Below are positions 4,339 to 55,001 of a stretch of DNA of 64,000 bases, in pieces. The stretch lies in assembly GCA_044356455.1 (NCBI GenBank), contig JBIKWF010000006.1, positions 4,477-68,476 on the forward strand. The letters are read 5' to 3'. Numbering within the stretch: position 1 is the first letter of the stretch; the number at the start of each line of letters is the position of its first letter. Position numbers and translations under genes: made by a program. Source of the DNA: Bdellovibrionota bacterium. GTDB lineage: Bacteria > Bdellovibrionota_C > UBA2361 > JBGSMV01. The notes below the pieces were generated by a model that ran no database searches, was not told the origin of the DNA, and saw nothing but the letters and a program-made list of their open reading frames with translations.

Positions 4339-4478
4339 CCGAGGGAACCCGTTAAAAACCCCCATTCTTAATAAACCTCTGCGTACCTCCGCGTCCTCTG
4401 TGGTGAATTTCTACATTAAAATTTCACCACAAAGGACACAGAGGTAAACAGAGGTGAATTCTTCAAAGATTCCCTAAG
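4339..4478. repeat. Nested-palindrome MITE-like intergenic element, copy 1 (degenerate left end)
   Basis: Core cctctgtggtgaatttctacattaaaatttcaccacaaagg flanked by ...ctctg / cagagg... arms, ending in tccctaag. It lies between the convergent genes at 4324 and 4474. Confidence 0.7.
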
Positions 4479-4794
4479 CTTCAAAGCGCAGGAAGAGCGC
4501 ACCGACGTTAACCTCATCTCCTTCTTTCAAAGCGAGAGGCTTGCCGCGCTCCACGCGTACAGTTCGATTGAGAAAGGTACCATTGAGGCTACCGAGGTCT
4601 TCCACCGTAACAGCATTTCCCGACACTCGAATCATTGCGTGTTTGCGAGAAATTTTCGCCTCTGTATCTTCCGCTTCGAGATCTATCTCTGGAAATGCCG
4701 CATCCTCGGGGTCCCAGCGACCTATCAGGTTGGTGCCTTCAACGAGTTCAAATTCCCTTCCCTTGGCACTCCCGTTCATAAGAACCAATCGCAT
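4474..4794 (-). CDS. Small FHA-domain protein
   Basis: MRLVLMNGSAKGREFELVEGTNLIGR...ISRKHAMIRVSGNAVTVEDLGSLNGTFLN. ATG at 4794 is preceded by GGAGGA. The track ORF is longer (to 4908). Confidence 0.65.
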   Translation of the reverse strand: MRLVLMNGSAKGREFELVEGTNLIGRWDPEDAAFPEIDLEAEDTEAKISRKHAMIRVSGNAVTVEDLGSLNGTFLNRTVRVERGKPLALKEGDEVNVGALFLRFEA

Positions 4795-5640: not shown

Positions 5641-7299
5641 ATGGATCGCCGCATGCTCATTAACGCCGTGCACTCTGAGGAGTGCCGGATTGCCATTGTC
5701 GAAGACAATGCTCTCGTAGAACTCGAAATCGAGTCAAACCTTGGGAAGAAGCTCAAGGGGAACATCTATAAAGCTAAAATTTCGCGCGTAGAGCCGAGTC
5801 TCCAAGCCGCCTTCATTGATATCGGCACCTCGCGTAACGGCTTTCTGCAGATTAACGATATCCATCCCTCATTCTTCAGGAATGCGCGGGGTGGACGTGG
5901 GGGCGCCTCTCAGGGCGGCCGACCTCGCATTCAAGAGGTCCTAGAGCCAGGGCAAGAGATTATCGTTCAAGTGGTAAAGGAAGAGCGTGAGATGAAGGGC
6001 GCAACCCTTACCACGTACCTTTCACTTCCGGGACGCTATGTGGTGATTATGCCCGGCAGCGACCGCGGCGGAATTTCCCGCAAGATTAGCGATGGAGACC
6101 AGCGCAAGCGCCTTAAAAGTCTGGCGCAAGAACTCGAGATGCCCCTCGGGATTGGCATGATCGTAAGAACTGCCGGACTCGATCGGTCCCTCAGCGAGCT
6201 CTCACGCGATGTCTCCCTGCAGCTCAAAGTGTGGGAGCGCATTGTGAACGATGCTCAGAAGGCGCGCACTCCCACCTGCCTCTACGAAGAGAGTGACTTA
6301 GCAACCCGCGTCATTCGCGATTACTTCACGCCTGAAGTGCGTGAAATTCTCATCGACGATCCAGACACGTTTGAGCGAGTGAAAGAGTTCGTGGGCCAAG
6401 TAATGCCGCGCTACCGCTCCCGCGTGAAGCTTTACAACGACGAACGCCCCCTGCTCTCCTACTTCAATGTCGAAGACCAAGTCACCGACACGATGAAGCG
6501 TGAGGTTAAGCTTAAATCTGGCGGCGCAATTGTCATTGATACCATTGAGGCCCTCGTCGCGGTCGATGTGAACTCCGGTAAAGCCACTGGCGCCGAGAAC
6601 ATTGAAGAAACCGCCTACCGCACCAACATGGAAGCCGCGGATGAAATTGCGCGGCAACTTCGCCTCCGCGACCTTGGTGGTCTGATTGTAGTCGACTTTA
6701 TCGATATGATGGACCGGCGTCACAAGGCCGCCATCGAGCGCAAAATTCGCGAGGCGGTCAAGAACGACAAAGCTCGTATTGAGATTGGTCGTCTCTCTCG
6801 TTTTGGCTTGCTTGAAATGTCACGCCAAAGGCTAAGAGCCTCACTCAGCAGCCAAAGCCATCTTAAGTGCTCACACTGCCAAGGGATTGGACACGTTCGA
6901 AACCCTGAGCTTGTCGCGCTTGAGATTCTAAGAAAAATCCAATCTGCAGTTTCCGCGGGACACCTCGCGCTGGTAAAGGCGCGCATGGCACCCGTGGCTG
7001 CGATGTTCATTCTCAATAATAAAAAGACTGAGCTGGTGAAGCTTGAACAAGCGCACCAAATGCGAATCTATATACTCGCCGACGGACGCATGAGCCCTGA
7101 CGAATACGAGTTCGAGATAGAGGCTGCCGCAAAATCGGCGGAGATAACGCACGAAGCGCCGCCACCACCACTCCCCGCGGATGAGGACGGAGGCTCTTCC
7201 GAAGAGTCAGAAACTCCTGTGGCGGCGAGCGCCCCGAGCAGCGGGACTGCAGAGGCGGCGCCGCGCTCAACGCAAAGCTCTGAGCCTCAAGACTCGTAA
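5641..7299 (+). CDS. Rne/Rng-family endoribonuclease (RNase E/G) with short acidic/Pro-rich C-terminal tail
   Basis: MDRRMLINA...S1 domain...DVNSGKATG catalytic region. ATG 5641 has GGAGG 10 nt upstream. A roughly 730-bp leader lies upstream. Confidence 0.8.
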   Translation: MDRRMLINAVHSEECRIAIVEDNALVELEIESNLGKKLKGNIYKAKISRVEPSLQAAFIDIGTSRNGFLQINDIHPSFFRNARGGRGGASQGGRPRIQEVLEPGQEIIVQVVKEEREMKGATLTTYLSLPGRYVVIMPGSDRGGISRKISDGDQRKRLKSLAQELEMPLGIGMIVRTAGLDRSLSELSRDVSLQLKVWERIVNDAQKARTPTCLYEESDLATRVIRDYFTPEVREILIDDPDTFERVKEFVGQVMPRYRSRVKLYNDERPLLSYFNVEDQVTDTMKREVKLKSGGAIVIDTIEALVAVDVNSGKATGAENIEETAYRTNMEAADEIARQLRLRDLGGLIVVDFIDMMDRRHKAAIERKIREAVKNDKARIEIGRLSRFGLLEMSRQRLRASLSSQSHLKCSHCQGIGHVRNPELVALEILRKIQSAVSAGHLALVKARMAPVAAMFILNNKKTELVKLEQAHQMRIYILADGRMSPDEYEFEIEAAAKSAEITHEAPPPPLPADEDGGSSEESETPVAASAPSSGTAEAAPRSTQSSEPQDS

Positions 7300-7330
7300 T
7301 CGGTTATTGCAGGAAATCTTTAGGCAGAAT

Positions 7331-7930
7331 TTAGAGAGAAGAGCGCTGCGTCGTAGGCCGACTTGCGCGATTGCCTTGCTCGGCAGCAATCCGGGCAAAG
7401 CGCTCTCCAATCTCAGCGATCAAAGCATCGCTCAGCGGTGCTGCAATCAGCACCTGAAGGCGAATTCGACCAAACGGACCGAGCTTATCCACCTCTCCAC
7501 GAGAAGTGCCCATCACGAGCGCATCCTTTTGTTCATCGGAAAGGGCCGCGGTGAAAGCCGCAGAGCGCCTCCCGGCAATGGGGAGTATGCAGGGCCAGAC
7601 TCGTTCTTTCGTAGAGCCCTCCAGGCACAGCGGCGCCCCCTCCCGCATCGGGAGCAGCTTGTCTGCGAATCGAAAATCAGCGTGAAGAGTTGCGATTTCA
7701 GCATCCATACGTGTGGCAAGTGACTCTAGAACTGGAATCACCGAGGCGCGCCACCATCCTGCTCGCGAGGCATCAGAGCCATCACTGGTGCGGGGATAAA
7801 CATCTCCCGCTGCTATGGAACACCACTCCCCTTTCGCGGTGTAACTCACATGTGAACTCACAAACCCCTCCCTCGGCGCCACGAATATAGAAAGAAGAGC
7901 CAGCGTAGTAAGAAAGATTCGATTCCGCAC
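7331..7930 (-). CDS. Hypothetical secreted protein (signal-peptide-like N-terminus); start uncertain
   Basis: The track ORF 7331..8077 begins inside the MITE copy, giving a repeat-encoded N-terminus (STTEGSEVHRG). A signal-like segment RNRIFLTTLALLSIFVAP suggests the start is near 7930, but the GTG there has poor spacing to its RBS. Confidence 0.35.
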   Translation of the reverse strand: MRNRIFLTTLALLSIFVAPREGFVSSHVSYTAKGEWCSIAAGDVYPRTSDGSDASRAGWWRASVIPVLESLATRMDAEIATLHADFRFADKLLPMREGAPLCLEGSTKERVWPCILPIAGRRSAAFTAALSDEQKDALVMGTSRGEVDKLGPFGRIRLQVLIAAPLSDALIAEIGERFARIAAEQGNRASRPTTQRSSL

Positions 7931-7980
7931 ACTCCCTCTATACTTCTGCCTTGCCGGTGGAAAAAAGCAGCGATCCCCAA

Positions 7981-8122
7981 CTAGGGAACCTCTGAAAAAC
8001 TCACCTCTGTGTACCTCTGAGCCCTCTGTGGTAGAATTTTCATGAAGAAATTCACCACAGAGGACACGGAGGTACACAGAGGTGTCTTCAGAATGAAGGT
8101 TTTTCAGAGGTGCCTTCCCTAG
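7981..8122. repeat. Nested-palindrome MITE-like element, copy 2 (best preserved)
   Basis: ctagggaacctctgaaaaac...cctctgtggtagaattttcatgaagaaattcaccacagagg...gtttttcagaggtgccttccctag. Perfect outer TIRs. The mreB stop lies in its right end. Confidence 0.8.
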
Positions 8123-13030: not shown

Positions 13031-13422
13031 TATCGAGGCTGATGCAGGAATGTTTCGTCTTAGGGCAAATCTTATTTCGCTAGCAATTTCGGCAGCTTAA
13101 GCCGAGAGCCTCGGTGATTCGCTTATGCGCAAGAGTGTTCTCCCGATGAAATCGCTGTGCTAGGATCCAGCGGTAAGACTCTTCAGAGAGCTCCTACATT
13201 ATTTCCCAGAGCGGCAGCACCGCTTTGGGCCCCCCACTGCGATAGCGTTCTAAACAGATTGGGGGGTGGTGTGTTGCTGGAGGCATAGGAGCCGACAGCA
13301 ATCGGAACGTAACATTGAATAAACGCGAAAGGGCTTTCCCAACTCACGCCTCGAATAACACCGAACATCGGTAAAAAGAGACCGGAGGGAAGGACAACTT
13401 TTCACGCACAAGGAGACCCAGC

Positions 13423-14760
13423 ATGGGCCAGGCCGCAAAAAAGGTTGAAACATCTTCTATGACGAGCAAATTTACCGACTACAAAGTAAAAGACATCGGT
13501 CTTGCTGAATGGGGCCGTAAGGAAATCACCATCGCCGAGAAGGAAATGCCAGGACTTATGGCTCTCCGCGAAGAATACGGCGCCTCGAGGCCTCTAAAGG
13601 GCGCGCGCATCGCCGGGTGTCTCCACATGACCACGCAAACCGCGGTCCTTATCGAGACGCTCATCGTTCTCGGCGCTGAGGTTCGTTGGTCAAGCTGCAA
13701 TATTTACTCGACTCAGGACGAAGCAGCGGCTGCCATCGCGGCTGCCGGAATTCCCGTATTTGCGTGGAAGGGTGAGACTCTTGAAGAGTACGATTGGTGT
13801 ATCGAGCAGACCCTGAAATTCGGCGACAAGAATCTCAATATGATTCTTGATGACGGCGGCGACCTCACGATGCTGATCCATAACAAGTATCCTGAAATGC
13901 TTAAGGACTGCTTCGGAATTTCCGAGGAAACCACCACCGGGGTGCACCGCCTGTATCAAATGATGGCAGAAGGAAAGCTCAAGCTCCCTGCTTTCAATGT
14001 GAACGACTCCGTCACCAAGTCAAAGTTCGACAACCTCTACGGCTGCCGCGAATCTCTCGCAGACGGCCTCAAGCGCGCCACAGGCGTCATGCTTGCTGGT
14101 AAGGTAGTCGTCGTTGCTGGTTACGGCGACGTAGGTAAGGGCTGCGCTCATTCGATGTCGAGCTACGGTGCTCGAGTACTCATCACCGAGATTGACCCTA
14201 TCTGCGCGCTTCAGGCATCGATGGAAGGCTACCAAGTGGTGACCATGGAGCAGGCTGCTCCTATTGCTGACATCTTCGTTACCGCTACTGGCAACGTCGA
14301 CATCATCAACGAGAAGCACTTCACGGCGATGAAGGACCAGGCAATTCTTTGCAATATCGGACACTTCGATAATGAGATCGACATCTCGTGGCTCGAGAAG
14401 AACTGCAAGGAAGAGTTCAATATCAAGCCTCAGGTCGATAAGTTTGTGATGAAGTCAGGTCGTGAGCTCATCGTCCTGGCACGTGGTCGATTGGTCAACC
14501 TTGGCTGCGCGAGTGGTCATCCGAGCTTCGTCATGTCGAGCTCTTTCACCAACCAAACCTTGGCTCAAATTGAGCTCTTCACCAAGAAGGGTCAGTACAA
14601 GGTGGGAGTCCACACCTTGCCTAAGGTCCTGGATGAAAAGGTGGCTCGTTTGCACCTTGGAAAGCTTGGCGTAAATCTTACTGAGCTCAGCAAGAAGCAG
14701 GCTGACTACCTTGGTATCAAGGTTGAAGGTCCCTTCAAGCCCGAGCACTATCGTTACTAG
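13423..14760 (+). CDS. ahcY: Adenosylhomocysteinase
   Basis: [17 protein letters not shown]...NAD-binding GYGDVGKG...[20 protein letters not shown] lies 7 nt upstream of the ATG. Confidence 0.9.
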
Positions 14761-14825
14761 TGCTATCGCTCCCGGCACCTTCGGATCGCTCGCATGGTAG
14801 CGATAGAAGAAGCGGAGAGCATGGT

Positions 14826-14870
14826 AAAAAAGAGGCGGAGTCAGGTGAAAACCTGGCTCCGCTTTTTTTA
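14826..14870. terminator. Bidirectional intrinsic terminator after ahcY
   Basis: aaaaaagaggcggagtcaggtgaaaacctggctccgcttttttta: a GC stem flanked by an A-run and a T-run. Confidence 0.6.
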
Positions 14871-15239
14871 CTGGGGCTCGTGTTCATAAGACCGCGAGAT
14901 GCGCCATAGCCAAAGCTAGGAGTGTGTCCCGTGGAAACAAAAATCTTCGGTATGGACAAAATCCGTAGATGAGCTGCCCCTGCCACCTCAACTTGTAGCG
15001 GCAAGAATTTTAGCCGGAACAGACTCTAAGCGAAGCCGTCTCGGTTCATTCTGAAACTGCATTCGAAAAATAATCGCTCCGTAAGTGACAGGTTCTGTGA
15101 TATTGAATTAACAAGTGATCGAGTTGGGTAGATGGGAATGGCGCCGCAGTCCAAGCGAATCCCCTTGAAATGCGCCTTTTAAGGGCTTTTTAGGGGACTC
15201 TCTTGGATTGCGACGACCGAGCGTAAATGGTTGCTTGGT

Positions 15240-15570
15240 TATATTAACTTGATCTCTCTCTCCTCCCTTGCCCCGGAACCGACAGGTTCCCGGGGTGAGT
15301 TGACTCCTCTCATGTCATGCACGGGTCCGGCGACGTCTCTACGGTAGCGACGTCAGTGGGACTCATACGGCGGGACTCAACCGGCGGGACTCAAACCGCA
15401 AGGGGCTACGACCCTTTCGTCTGGCTCCCTCCGGACCCGTGCATGATTTTTGTATTTATTCTGTAAACTTGCCCCCTCTCTCTCTTGGCGACTGGCAACA
15501 TGCTGGTCGCCAAGGATTCTCCCTCTCTCCGGCACGGCAGACCTCGCGGGGTCTGCTGTGCTTTTGGCTC
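15240..15570 (+). other. Highly structured non-coding region (candidate sRNA(s) and terminators) in a 1.4-kb gene-free convergent gap
   Basis: A 15-bp perfect long-range stem (catgcacgggtccgg at 15315 pairs with ccggacccgtgcatg at 15431) is followed by ttttt. It encloses a GACGTC hairpin and 3x GGGACTCA(A/T)ACCGGC repeats. A second hairpin plus T-run lies at 15532..15566. No ORF exceeds 90 aa. Confidence 0.3.
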
Positions 15571-16020
15571 ACCGGAATCCGTCCCGAACCCTCGGTGACG
15601 GTGGGCCAGTTTTGGGAACTGCGGAATAGAAATTAGTTTGCGACGCTGAACGCACGTCGCTTACAAAATCCTATTCTGTGGTCTCTCAGGTGTGATTGGA
15701 CGATCATGTGCGGTAGGCGTTATGGTGTTGAGCAGACTTGAGGTGAGAAACACTCCCCTCCTCCCTGCACTCACCTTGCAGCGCTCCACGTGATGCCAGG
15801 TGATGCTTACTTCCCCGTGGTGCCCTCCGGCCACGAAAGCGTCACTTACCGCGCCTGCTCCTAGAGGTTCTCTGGTTTTCCTCAACCGGTTTTCCTTTAG
15901 GTCGCTCGGTCGTCCAATCACGCTTTTATTTTTCTTAGAAAGAATTGGTTTATCAAAACAACCACTAAGACCACAGAGACCACAAAGAAAGGAGAATACT
16001 CCACTTGCCTCAGGGCATTT

Positions 16021-16178
16021 CTAAGGAACCTCTAAAAACCTTCATTCTTAAGACACCTCTGTGTACCTCTGAGTCCTCTGTGGTGAAATTTTCATGAAGA
16101 AATTCACCACAGAGGACACAGAGGTACACAGAGGTACACAGAGGTACACAGAGGTAAATTTTTCAGAGGTTCCCTAAG
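16021..16178. repeat. MITE-like element copy 3, with internal 4x tandem tacacagagg expansion
   Basis: ctaaggaacctctaaaaacc...cctctgtggtgaaattttcatgaagaaattcaccacagagg (acacagaggt)x4 ...tttttcagaggttccctaag. Confidence 0.8.
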
Positions 16179-16204
16179 TTTGCCTCAGATATTCCAAGGG
16201 AATC

Positions 16205-17134
16205 TTAGCGAGGCGGGCTTGAGGTCGCCTCGAAATAACTTTGCTCAAGGCTTCTCTGACTCTCGACTCCCAGAACTCCAACCTTGTGCCTAAAAAGCCA
16301 AAAGAGCACGCGGCTATTAACCTCGGGGATTTGAAATTCGCCAGGGTTGAACTGCACAAACAAGAGCCGTGCCTCCGGGCGGGTGAACCTGAACTCGGGA
16401 AAATGTCCCTCAAGCTCCTGCAAATCAAGATTTCCCTCATCAAGGCGAAACGTAATACGCGAACTTTGCGCGAGGAGCGACTTGATGGGTCCTTCACGCA
16501 CCACCTGCCCATGGTCTACCATCACGACATAATCACACATGAGCTGGAGCTGGCTTAAATCGTGGGAACTAATCACAAGCGTCGTGGTTCCCCTCAGACT
16601 ATCAACACAGTTCCTAAAGGCCATCACCATCTTGGGATCGAGCCCCTGGGTCGGTTCATCAAGTAGTACTACGGGGGGATTCCCCACCAACGCCTGTGCC
16701 ACGCCTAAGCGCACGCGCATGCCGTGAGAAAGCGTAGCAACTAAATCCGAAGCTCGGTCTTCAAGCGCGACAAGCTTTAAAACCCGGCGCACCTCCTCCC
16801 ACACTTCGCGTCCGCTGAGGCCCGCAAGCTTGGCAAAGAGAACCAAGTGCCGCTCGACGGATCGGTTTTCAAAATACATCACGTCCTGTGGGAGTACCCC
16901 TACAATCCCTCCCTGCGCTCGAAATTGCGCAAGGGGCATGCCCTCTACTTCGATCGTCCCCGAATTGGGTTTAAAAAATCCGCCTATAAGCGAAAAGGTT
17001 GTCGTTTTACCCGCCCCATTCGAACCAACAAAGGCAGCAATTGAAAGCTTAGGGATGGAAAAAGAAATCCCACGCAAGGCCTCACGCTTTCCGAAGCGCT
17101 TCACGAGGCCCGTGACACGCAGCGCCGCTTCCAT
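16205..17134 (-). CDS. ABC transporter ATP-binding protein
   Basis: Walker A GSNGAGKTT, signature and Walker B LLDEPT. Confidence 0.85.
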   Translation of the reverse strand: MEAALRVTGLVKRFGKREALRGISFSIPKLSIAAFVGSNGAGKTTTFSLIGGFFKPNSGTIEVEGMPLAQFRAQGGIVGVLPQDVMYFENRSVERHLVLFAKLAGLSGREVWEEVRRVLKLVALEDRASDLVATLSHGMRVRLGVAQALVGNPPVVLLDEPTQGLDPKMVMAFRNCVDSLRGTTTLVISSHDLSQLQLMCDYVVMVDHGQVVREGPIKSLLAQSSRITFRLDEGNLDLQELEGHFPEFRFTRPEARLLFVQFNPGEFQIPEVNSRVLFWLFRHKVGVLGVESQRSLEQSYFEATSSPPR

Positions 17135-18850: not shown

Positions 18851-18926
<76 letters not shown>

Positions 18927-18928
18927 TA

Positions 18929-19185
18929 TTTCCCGCTCGGCGCTCTGCCCAGGGACTCCGCCCCTCGCTTCGCTAATCGCTCGCACACCCCGTCCTCTTC
19001 GCTGGGCTTCGCCCTTCGAAGCTTTATTTACTTTGGCGACCCCATGCATTTCCCGCTCGGCGCTCTGCCCAGGGACTCCGCCCCTCGCTTCGCTAATCGC
19101 TCGCACACCCCGTCCTCTTCGCTGGGCTTCGCCCTTCGAAGCTTTATTTACTTTGACGACCCCATGCATTTCCCGCTCGGCGCTC
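18929..19185. repeat. 120-bp direct tandem repeat, 2 full copies plus about 15 bp, starting 2 nt after the tRNA-Thr CCA
   Basis: tcccgctcggcgctctgcccagggactccgcccc... recurs at 18931, 19051 and 19171. The unit end (gaccccatgc) resembles the tRNA 3' end (cccatgggcggctcca). Confidence 0.85.
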
Positions 19186-23922: not shown

Positions 23923-24056
23923 GGAACCTCTGAAAAACTCACCTCCGTGACCTCCGCGCCCTCTGTGGTTAAATTTTCATGAAGAAATTCACCACAGAGG
24001 AAACGGAGGTGCACAGAGGTGTATTAAGATTGGAGGTTTTTCAGAAGCTCCCTAAG
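23919..24056. repeat. MITE-like element copy 4
   Basis: ctaaggaacctctgaaaaactcacctccgtgacctccgcgccctctgtggttaaattttcatgaagaaattcaccacagagg...ggtttttcagaagctccctaag. Confidence 0.8.
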
Positions 24057-42777: not shown

Positions 42778-42909
42778 CTTAGGGAACCTCTGGAAAACCT
42801 CTATTCTTAATACACCTCTGTGTACCTCTGAGCCCTCTGTGGTGAATTTCTTAACGAAAATTTCGCCATAGAGGGCCCACAGTGGGTTATTCAGAGTAGA
42901 CTCCTTAGG
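42778..42909. repeat. MITE-like element copy 6 (degenerate right half) inside the ccoP-ccoG intergenic space
   Basis: cttagggaacctctggaaaacc...cctctgtggtgaatttcttaacgaaaatttcgccatagaggg...cagagtagactccttagg. Confidence 0.7.
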
Positions 42910-53770: not shown

Positions 53771-53906
53771 CTAGGGAATCTCTGAACAAGTCCGCTCAGT
53801 GAGCTCTGTGTCCTCTGTGGTTGATTTAAATTGTTGAAAAACCACAGAGGACACAGAGCTCACTGAGAGAAAAAATAAAATAGCGATGTTTTTAGAGGTT
53901 ACCTAG
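53771..53906. repeat. MITE-like element copy 7
   Basis: ctagggaatctctgaacaag...gtcctctgtggttgatttaaattgttgaaaaaccacagaggac...tttttagaggttacctag. Confidence 0.7.
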
Positions 53907-54850: not shown

Positions 54851-55001
54851 CCCTAAGCGTGGTTTAGAATCCAGATCTCACGCTCCTGGGCACCGCCTAT
54901 GAAACTCACTTCTGTGCGCCTCAGAGTCCTCCGAGGTGAATTTCTTCATGAAAATTTCACCTCGGAGAACACGGAGGTCAGTTTTTCAGAGTCTCCTTAG
55001 G
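54851..55001. repeat. MITE-like element copy 8 (degenerate)
   Basis: ...cctccgaggtgaatttcttcatgaaaatttcacctcggagaacacggagg...tttttcagagtctccttagg. Confidence 0.6.

Follow-up and report, generated by a model that had tools for sequence, protein, structure and literature searches.

The question raised by this locus is what occupies the 1.44-kb gap between two convergent genes in a 64-kb stretch of DNA (contig JBIKWF010000006.1; hereafter the window) from an uncultured member of the Bdellovibrionota. The gap separates ahcY (13423-14760, plus strand) from an ABC-type ATPase gene (16205-17134, minus strand), and an initial annotation had described it as a hairpin-packed, candidate small RNA (sRNA) locus. 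To our knowledge, the RNA regulators of Bdellovibrionota and of their uncultured relatives have hardly been described. Caution is needed at such loci: long hairpins in gene-free gaps mix dispersed palindromic repeats with RNA under selection, and separating the two needs comparison between relatives as well as strand tests.

Here, we describe the structures of the gap, show that they exceed chance expectation, document that the 3' module of its core is conserved and keeps its pairing in a strand-specific manner, and trace the insertion history of the junction. The gap is a mosaic of a terminator, repeat elements, and a plus-strand core of ~720 nt. Judged by comparison with relatives, it holds at least one strand-specific structured element that is conserved at the RNA level and belongs to a family not in Rfam. 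The explanation that we favour, at a probability of roughly one half, is a lineage-restricted family of structured small RNAs that would pair with ribosome-binding sites and that sits inside a mosaic of insertions. If true, this would be a new structured RNA family with multivalent anti-Shine-Dalgarno loops. The gap is also a clean case of a convergent 60-nt spacer grown to 1.4 kb by gain of repeat elements and putative RNA modules.

A conserved structured domain with strand-specific pairing

Domain B (15686-15926, plus strand) is a predicted structured RNA of ~240 nt, whose consensus fold has nine helices and is closed by a helix of 18-22 bp. A large loop rich in C/U (~15750-15771) sits on helix 3, a nested hairpin towards the 3' end has a UUUUCCUC loop, and the domain ends in an invariant 3' arm followed by TTTTATTTTT (15924-15933). 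Long-range complementarity had been noted here in the initial annotation; it is perfect between 15692-15703 and 15910-15921 and forms part of an 18-bp closing stem in the fold.

Homologues of domain B are present at two loci with an ATPase 84% identical to that of the window, L167 (3055-3293, minus strand) and L168 (2948-3134, minus strand). The homologue of 15692-15927 lies ~160 nt downstream of the ATPase stop at these loci, and L167 lacks, at the orthologous position, a ~150-nt palindromic repeat that borders the gap in the window. In the alignment of the window with L167, domain B is ~70% identical over 243 nt, close to the 72.6% nucleotide identity of the ATPase gene. The indels in this alignment measure 1, 2, 1, 1, and 3 nt; being mostly not multiples of three, they indicate that domain B is not coding.

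Folded alone, the L167 copy adopts the same architecture (z -5.4, where z compares the minimum free energy (MFE) with that of dinucleotide shuffles). The initial annotation had pointed to covariation in homologous regions as informative, and both homologues keep the multi-helix fold. The consensus fold of the window and L167 comprises 68 pairs in nine helices; 28 pairs vary, nine of them on both sides and 19 through G-U, and none is broken. Conservation is far from even, as 16 of the 22 pairs of the closing helix are invariant at ~30% overall divergence, much better kept than the rest.

Because the structure was derived from the same two sequences, a strand control was added, in which the alignment was folded on each strand and compared with 200 column shuffles preserving the conservation pattern. 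The plus strand gave -79.3 kcal/mol against -32.7 +/- 4.7 for the shuffles (z -9.8), whereas the minus strand gave -42.3 kcal/mol (z -2.9). Such asymmetry is expected from a plus-strand RNA and not from a DNA palindrome. It argues against the best-surviving alternative, that the whole gap is a pile-up of non-autonomous inverted-repeat DNA elements in a 'safe' convergent spacer, with RNA structure as a functionless by-product. Against that alternative also stand the preferential conservation of the closing helix and the nature of the one-sided changes in domain B: all go through G-U and would be A-C mismatches on the other strand, which is unexpected for a neutral palindrome.

L167 and L168 belong to one species: over 3.2 kb they are 97.5% identical with gaps counted, and they differ by 20 mismatches. 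The domain B of L168 has three deletions of 13, 11, and 9 nt relative to L167 that remove helix segments. Judged by eye on the L167 MFE model, the deletions take out opposite strands of inner helices, and when supplied with the 5' arm of L167 the L168 sequence still folds to the closing helix and three conserved hairpins. Four features are shared by these three sequences: the closing helix, where an invariant stretch of 22 nt (GGTCGCTCGGTCGTCCAATCAC) covers the 3' arm; a hairpin whose loop of 18-24 nt is rich in C/U (ACACUCCCCUCCUCCCUGCA in the window); a second hairpin of the form CCRUGGUG...CCAYG; and the nested hairpin on the 3' side, whose loop reads UUUUCC(UC). A search of 39 fetched loci, representing the closest relatives, with a covariance model built on domain B recovered only the copies in the window, L167, and L168. 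Judging from the alignment and the fold models, domain B is probably a functional plus-strand RNA.

Between domain B and the ATPase stop, both homologous loci contain a 12-nt tandem repeat (CACCCATTTCGG; L167 2975-3060, L168 ~2905-2955). It is present in ~7 copies in L167 and ~4 in L168, despite only 20 mismatches over 3.2 kb.

Upstream modules and pyrimidine tracts

The gap was said to contain no open reading frame (ORF) above 90 aa, and indeed the three longest ORFs between the two stop codons (ahcY 14760, ATPase 16205) have 89, 86, and 74 aa. The long-range stem reported there is present and perfect over 16 bp rather than 15 (15315-15330 with 15431-15446); by our calculation, ~3e-4 such 16-bp perfect pairs are expected in 1.6 kb. 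This stem closes domain A (15315-15451, plus strand), which encloses the GACGTC/GACGTC hairpin and the three 14-nt GGGACTCA-type repeats (15358-15399) of the earlier description together with a further hairpin, and runs into TTTTT at 15447-15451. The second GC hairpin was also recovered, at 15532-15561 and followed by TTTT.

The initial annotation's picture of 14880-16020 as packed with hairpins holds for most of the interval (z -5 to -14.6) and fails for 14880-15100 (z about 0). In particular, z was -5.0 for 15300-15460, -7.9 for 15245-15570, -6.5 for 15670-15935, and -14.6 for 15198-15932 (20 shuffles only); in a fold scan, flanking coding sequence gave values near 0 to -2. Across 15198-15932, the plus strand folds at -327.6 kcal/mol (z -14.6) and the minus strand at -293.4 kcal/mol (z -6.2). 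The strongest hairpin of the gap (16055-16135) falls outside 14880-16020 and belongs to a dispersed repeat.

Two or three sRNA-like modules would precede domain B, characterized by a single-stranded C/U tract, GC hairpins, and a U-run. The predicted fold and a tract scan place C/U tract 1 at 15253-15269 and a GC hairpin directly after it at 15270-15296 (together 15253-15296, plus strand). Downstream of domain A, a candidate module at 15472-15565 (plus strand) combines C/U tract 2 (15472-15486), a hairpin (15484-15514), C/U tract 3 (15517-15530), and, at its 3' end, the terminator hairpin 15532-15561 with TTTT; it folds at -52.2 kcal/mol on the plus strand versus -41.8 kcal/mol on the minus strand. 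Each upstream C/U tract is thus followed by a GC hairpin, and the third of these hairpins is a canonical terminator. On their 5' sides, the first two modules share 75% identity (15459-15482 and 15239-15262), which suggests that they arose by duplication. No homologue of 15224-15685 was found, so the modules in this interval are read from the window sequence alone.

Four pyrimidine runs of 14-17 nt occur on the plus strand within 520 nt (15253-15766), and all are unpaired or in a loop in the predicted folds. With 34 pyrimidine runs of at least 12 nt in the 64 kb of the window, ~0.28 would be expected per 520 nt (Poisson P ~2e-4, our calculation). Both the C/U-rich loop of domain B and its UUUUCCUC loop are kept in the window, L167, and L168. 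Genes in the window have ribosome-binding sites of the AAGGAG/GGGAGG type, and their predicted duplexes with the C/U tracts reach -22 kcal/mol. Sites with a terminator-like hairpin and U-run number six versus 1.8 expected, the canonical one being 15532-15565.

A possible family of anti-Shine-Dalgarno RNAs

Under the favoured explanation, the core (~15205-15926, plus strand, in the direction of ahcY) would encode structured non-coding RNA, whose transcription and transcript ends we infer. The ~240-nt RNA of 15686-15926 would be its best-supported part, with a fold under selection. The RNAs would act in trans: exposed C/U tracts and loops (CUCCCCUCCUCCCU, UUUUCCUC, and similar) may pair with the purine-rich Shine-Dalgarno regions of mRNAs and thereby block the initiation of translation. 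This mechanism is drawn by analogy and is put forward tentatively, with a good deal less confidence than the RNA nature of domain B.

Sibling groups of C/U-rich anti-Shine-Dalgarno sRNAs include RsaE/RoxS of Staphylococcus and Bacillus and the tandem AbcR1/2 of alpha-proteobacteria. The modules of the window resemble Listeria LhrC1-5 in standing in tandem in one intergenic region. They are also LhrC-like in that, in the predicted folds, C/U-rich sequence is exposed in a hairpin loop and in single-stranded stretches beside a terminator hairpin; in LhrC4, C/U-rich regions bind Shine-Dalgarno sites (PMC5880928). In contrast to LhrC and AbcR (~100 nt), domain B is ~240 nt long and is closed by a terminal helix of 18-22 bp. 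The putative RNA of the window further differs from LhrC, and from all Rfam families, in lacking sequence or covariance-model similarity, and it comes from a different, Bdellovibrionota-like phylum.

Several observations weigh against this explanation. The comparative support for domain B comes from two lineages and a partial third, and the consensus structure was derived from the sequences being compared, so that the complete retention of pairing is partly built in. The nine two-sided changes lie within the range of the column shuffles (mean 5.3, maximum 10) and are not significant alone. In L167 the U-run after the closing helix is weak (CCAUUU), and three deletions between the near-identical L167 and L168 also fit relaxed constraint on part of the domain. 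Domain A folds equally well on both strands, has no homologue, and could be a DNA palindrome. C/U tracts pair with nearly any Shine-Dalgarno sequence, so the duplex energies are unspecific. Finally, no convincing sigma-70 promoter was found upstream of any module on the plus strand. A possible promoter read by eye at 15638-15667 (TTGCGA-N18-TACAAA) is not conserved in L167.

The sole sigma-70 consensus match in the gap (TTGATA-17-AAAAAT, 15956-15928, minus strand) points into domain B in antisense. One match is the number expected by chance, and this one is not conserved in L167.

Insertion history and repeat-type elements

In a more distant relative (L176-L178, ATPase 59% aa identity), the ATPase gene and ahcY converge across a spacer of ~60 nt (L176 10924-10984), presumed to be the ancestral state of the junction. 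Because this spacer is so short, we conclude that the 1.44-kb gap was built by insertions. A tblastn search with the proteins encoded after ahcY in L165 found no remnants in the gap, and the gap is therefore not made of decayed genes.

The first structure after ahcY is a bidirectional intrinsic terminator (14826-14869), seen in the sequence as an A-run, a 12-bp stem (14835-14846 with 14851-14862), a GAAA loop, and a T7 run; it reaches z -6 to -8 in the local fold scan. It is followed by a 118-nt element (14910-15027) with degenerate terminal inverted repeats, CTAGGAGTGTGTCCC...GGAACAGACTCTAAG. In the closest relative, L161 (2139-2255) and L162 (1778-1889), whose AhcY is 97% identical at the protein and 84% at the nucleotide level, the element lies directly after ahcY in the opposite orientation. 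Its inverted repeats there are near-perfect over 23 nt, and the element folds with z -5 to -7, compared with -1 to -2 for the window copy. The two contigs are independent assemblies, and both stop within or at the far repeat. The element could be a small invertible segment or a miniature inverted-repeat transposable element (MITE) inserted twice. Similarity also exists between its inner repeat (TTTCTAAGGGAC) and the end (TTTCTAAGGAACC) of the ~150-nt repeat at the other side of the gap.

That second element (16020-16180) is a palindromic dispersed repeat, MITE-like or similar to repetitive extragenic palindromes (REP), with 10-nt ACCTCTGTGT / ACACAGAGGT units and outer inverted ends CTAAGGAACCTCTGAAAAAC. 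Three 9-nt ACCACAGAG-type repeats beside it (15961-15988) are related to its sub-repeats. At least six copies are present in the window, ~1 per 10 kb (~4340-4480, ~7975-8110, 16020-16180, ~23925-24050, ~37170-37300, and ~42790-42900), with partial matches near 53804-53858 and 54926-54961. Same-species contigs from other samples end at this repeat, which evidently breaks short-read assemblies of the species. It had no match in viral contigs, phages, or plasmids. The proposal of an sRNA locus is thus supported for 15686-15926, where the fold is kept in homologues, and falls for 14910-15027 and 16020-16180, which are repeat or inverted-repeat DNA elements.

Palindromic repeats of the MITE or REP type are well known in bacteria, for example Correia/NEMIS, ERIC, BOX, and RUP. 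The gap shares with them terminal inverted repeats, modular palindromes, accumulation in a convergent spacer, and presence or absence between relatives; the likeness is clear for 16020-16180 and probable for 14910-15027. The core (15205-15926), unlike such elements, is single-copy in 64 kb, has no visible target-site duplication, and ends in a module with strand-specific, RNA-type conservation.

These comparisons also place the element pile-up. With an ancestral junction of ~60 nt all content of the gap must have been inserted, and the pile-up has in its favour the genuinely dispersed repeat at 16020-16180 as well as the 118-nt element, with its inverted-repeat ends, its inversion in L161/L162, and two assemblies broken at its far repeat. 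The core itself is bracketed by 19-nt inverted arms, which recur at a different genomic place in L170 around an unalignable interior, a pattern of conserved ends and variable cargo. Domain A and the ~150-nt repeat fold equally on both strands, and L174, from the same sample as L167, has another family of palindromic repeats after ahcY. Beside the RNA-type conservation of domain B stand further points against it: the 118-nt element, domain A, domain B, and the arms are each single-copy within the window; inspection of the arm boundaries by eye, in the window as in L170, showed no target-site duplication, the exact ends of the elements being uncertain; and blastn of the gap against plasmids and phages gave no match. 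Pattern scans of viral contigs with the 3' arm, the repeat core, the end of the 14910 element, and the 5' arm returned a single 19-nt match, which lies inside a high-GC phage coding region (L175) and is taken as chance. As an account of the whole gap, we consider the pile-up unlikely, although it is the most serious rival of the RNA family that we favour.

In L174, an AhcY 95% relative, the sequence after ahcY is unrelated to the gap and holds three copies of a different palindromic repeat family (GCTAGCC...CTCACGG-type, 1150-1652). In this clade, repeats seem to insert preferentially in the sequence that follows ahcY. The contigs of the 97% and 95% AhcY relatives are short, L161 and L162 reaching only as far as the inverted-repeat element, and in L163-L165 (AhcY 86% aa identity) the neighbours differ from those of the window. 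AhcY scans of genomes and metagenomes yielded 160 loci (best 80-81% aa identity), none similar to the gap, and a scan of a genome collection with the ABC permease did not find relatives.

Paired arms and the question of a larger unit

The 3' arm of domain B has a second partner in the gap. A distal 5' arm (GGATTGCGACGACCGAGCG, 15205-15223, plus strand) is complementary to 15903-15921, with 12 bp perfect and 18 pairs around one bulge in a hand alignment. Its predicted duplex with the 3' arm has -31.6 kcal/mol (-32.4 for the best scan window), near the -33.3 kcal/mol of the proximal arm of domain B. Across the whole window nothing pairs with the 3' arm as strongly as these two 5' arms, although chance partners reach -29.9 kcal/mol.

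The distal 5' arm recurs, with 27/29 nt kept, in a third lineage, L170 (ATPase 71% aa identity), where it sits 5.7 kb away from the ATPase within 2.5 kb of gene-poor sequence. At a distance of ~550 nt comes a 3' arm complementary to it (CGCTCGGTCTCGCGTCC), and CCCUUUU follows. The MFE fold of L170 pairs the ends of this unit (z -7.8), and by eye its interior shows C/U tracts, a 26-bp closed stem, and a GC hairpin with U-run, none of it alignable to the window. A 1-nt indel separates the window and L170 versions of the 29-nt arm, and by our reading the two share no open frame. A unit at another locus with conserved ends and a variable interior fits an inverted-repeat-bounded mobile element and an end-paired large RNA equally well. 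The gene-poor stretch of L170 (6850-9378) lies between ribonucleotide reductase and methyltransferase genes and has no Rfam match; the arm-bounded structured unit takes up 7082-7648, leaving ~1.7 kb unexplained.

These arms raise the alternative that 15205-15926 is one undescribed, end-paired 'ornate' RNA of ~0.6-0.7 kb (~0.72 kb in the window), restricted to an uncultured Bdellovibrionota-like clade, rather than three sRNAs. Its hallmark would be the terminal helix GGAUUGCGAYGACCGAGCG / CGCUCGGUC..., around an interior of fast-evolving hairpins with anti-Shine-Dalgarno-like pyrimidine loops. As a mobile RNA gene cassette, it might be a multivalent sponge or scaffold whose partners are ribosome-binding sites or a pyrimidine-binding protein, and competition of the proximal and distal 5' arms for the 3' arm might make a conformational switch. 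The similar pairing energies of the two arms favour this, and when the proximal arm is blocked, a fold of the entire unit with its ends paired costs only 9 kcal/mol. L170 folds in the same manner, pairing homologous arms around ~560 nt with parts that look similar by eye; each of the three lineages has a U-tract after the 3' arm; and the z of -14.6 (20 shuffles) applies to the unit as a whole. On the other side, the internal terminator-like sites at 15447-15451 and 15532-15565, the latter canonical, should stop transcription, and the unconstrained fold of the window pairs the 3' arm with the proximal rather than the distal arm. Only the arms align between L170 and the window, L170 shows no strand asymmetry, and the level reached by chance partners makes the distal pairing alone not decisive. 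A single large RNA is a rather improbable reading, more so than the element pile-up, although the locus would be of greater interest if it were true.

The core resembles ROOL, GOLLD, OLE, raiA, and HEARO in its length of hundreds of nucleotides, its many helices, its extreme fold stability, its lack of an explanatory neighbour gene, and its narrow taxonomic range. It differs from them in its internal terminator-like sites, in being known from only 2-3 lineages, and in having no covariance-model match to any of the five, even at E <= 10. The core is like 6S RNA and bacterial Y RNA/YrlA in that its 5' and 3' ends are predicted to pair into a long, conserved helix and the sequence between them varies more, but it has no Rfam match and its interior architecture is different. 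No Ro/TROVE-type gene was found among the scanned ORFs of the window.

Known RNA families, coding potential, and other identities

With the Rfam 15 models, the only match in the whole window at gathering score was tRNA-Thr, and the homologous loci L167, L168, and L170 gave tRNAs only. The failure of the initial annotation to recognize RNase P, SRP, tmRNA, or 6S RNA by eye is borne out, and these and other curated families, among them Y RNA, LhrC, and AbcR, are excluded at this threshold. Searched at E <= 10, 14700-16300 gave matches with E < 0.01 only to 'miRNA' models on the hairpin 16055-16135, which are artefacts of the long hairpin in the repeat; the rest was noise. The best match inside the core was sX13, with 15.8 bits against a gathering score of 50.

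Other identities were rejected from sequence and context: a riboswitch or leader, as no plus-strand gene lies downstream, and an integron attC site, a retron, CRISPR, or a type I toxin. The likeness of GGGACTCAAACC to a complement of the tRNA T-arm is at chance level.

The structures might instead be part of extended 3' untranslated regions of the two convergent transcripts (ahcY and ABC transporter), acting as terminators, insulators, or stabilisers against collision and read-through. The convergence of the genes, the bidirectional terminator at 14826-14869, the repeat hairpin just after the ATPase stop, and several hairpins with U-runs on the plus strand would agree with such a role. Yet the strong ahcY terminator stands 70-110 nt after the stop and upstream of all structured modules, a 60-nt spacer suffices in a relative, and a 240-nt multi-helix domain with conserved loops exceeds the needs of termination. 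We consider this very unlikely.

That the gap hides one or more small protein-coding genes is hardly credible: ORFs of 42-89 aa exist on both strands, including one of 86 aa that overlaps domain B (15661-15921, minus strand), but they are not shared, the indels between the window and L167 are mostly not multiples of three, the arm of L170 has a 1-nt indel, no ORF of the gap matches Pfam, no record was found for the exact 86-aa product, gene calling by the Joint Genome Institute on a sister contig leaves the 1.3 kb that follow ahcY empty, and a six-frame concatenated protein query found nothing at E <= 10. The last result is weak, as this query missed even ORFs called on L167 and L168, probably because its length swamped the word filter.

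Gene neighbourhood

The AhcY of this uncultured source is closest (80-81% aa identity) to proteins of metagenome-assembled Bdellovibrionota and unclassified proteobacterial genomes. The window derives from JGI sample 3300059473, and its species is also present in 3300042518, SRR11646531, SRR27426704, and ERZ27272050. The ATPase gene is followed by genes for an ABC-2 permease and ApaG, and the wider neighbourhood is of a housekeeping kind, with ComEC, an RNase E/G family protein, MreB, FabH, and a DEAD-box helicase. The divergent spacer upstream of ahcY (13031-13422, 390 nt) has no S-adenosylhomocysteine (SAH) riboswitch or other Rfam match at gathering score. Directly after tRNA-Thr (18851-18926), a 120-nt unit is repeated 2.2 times at 99% identity (18928-19185), and this repeat may be a remnant of integration at the tRNA gene.

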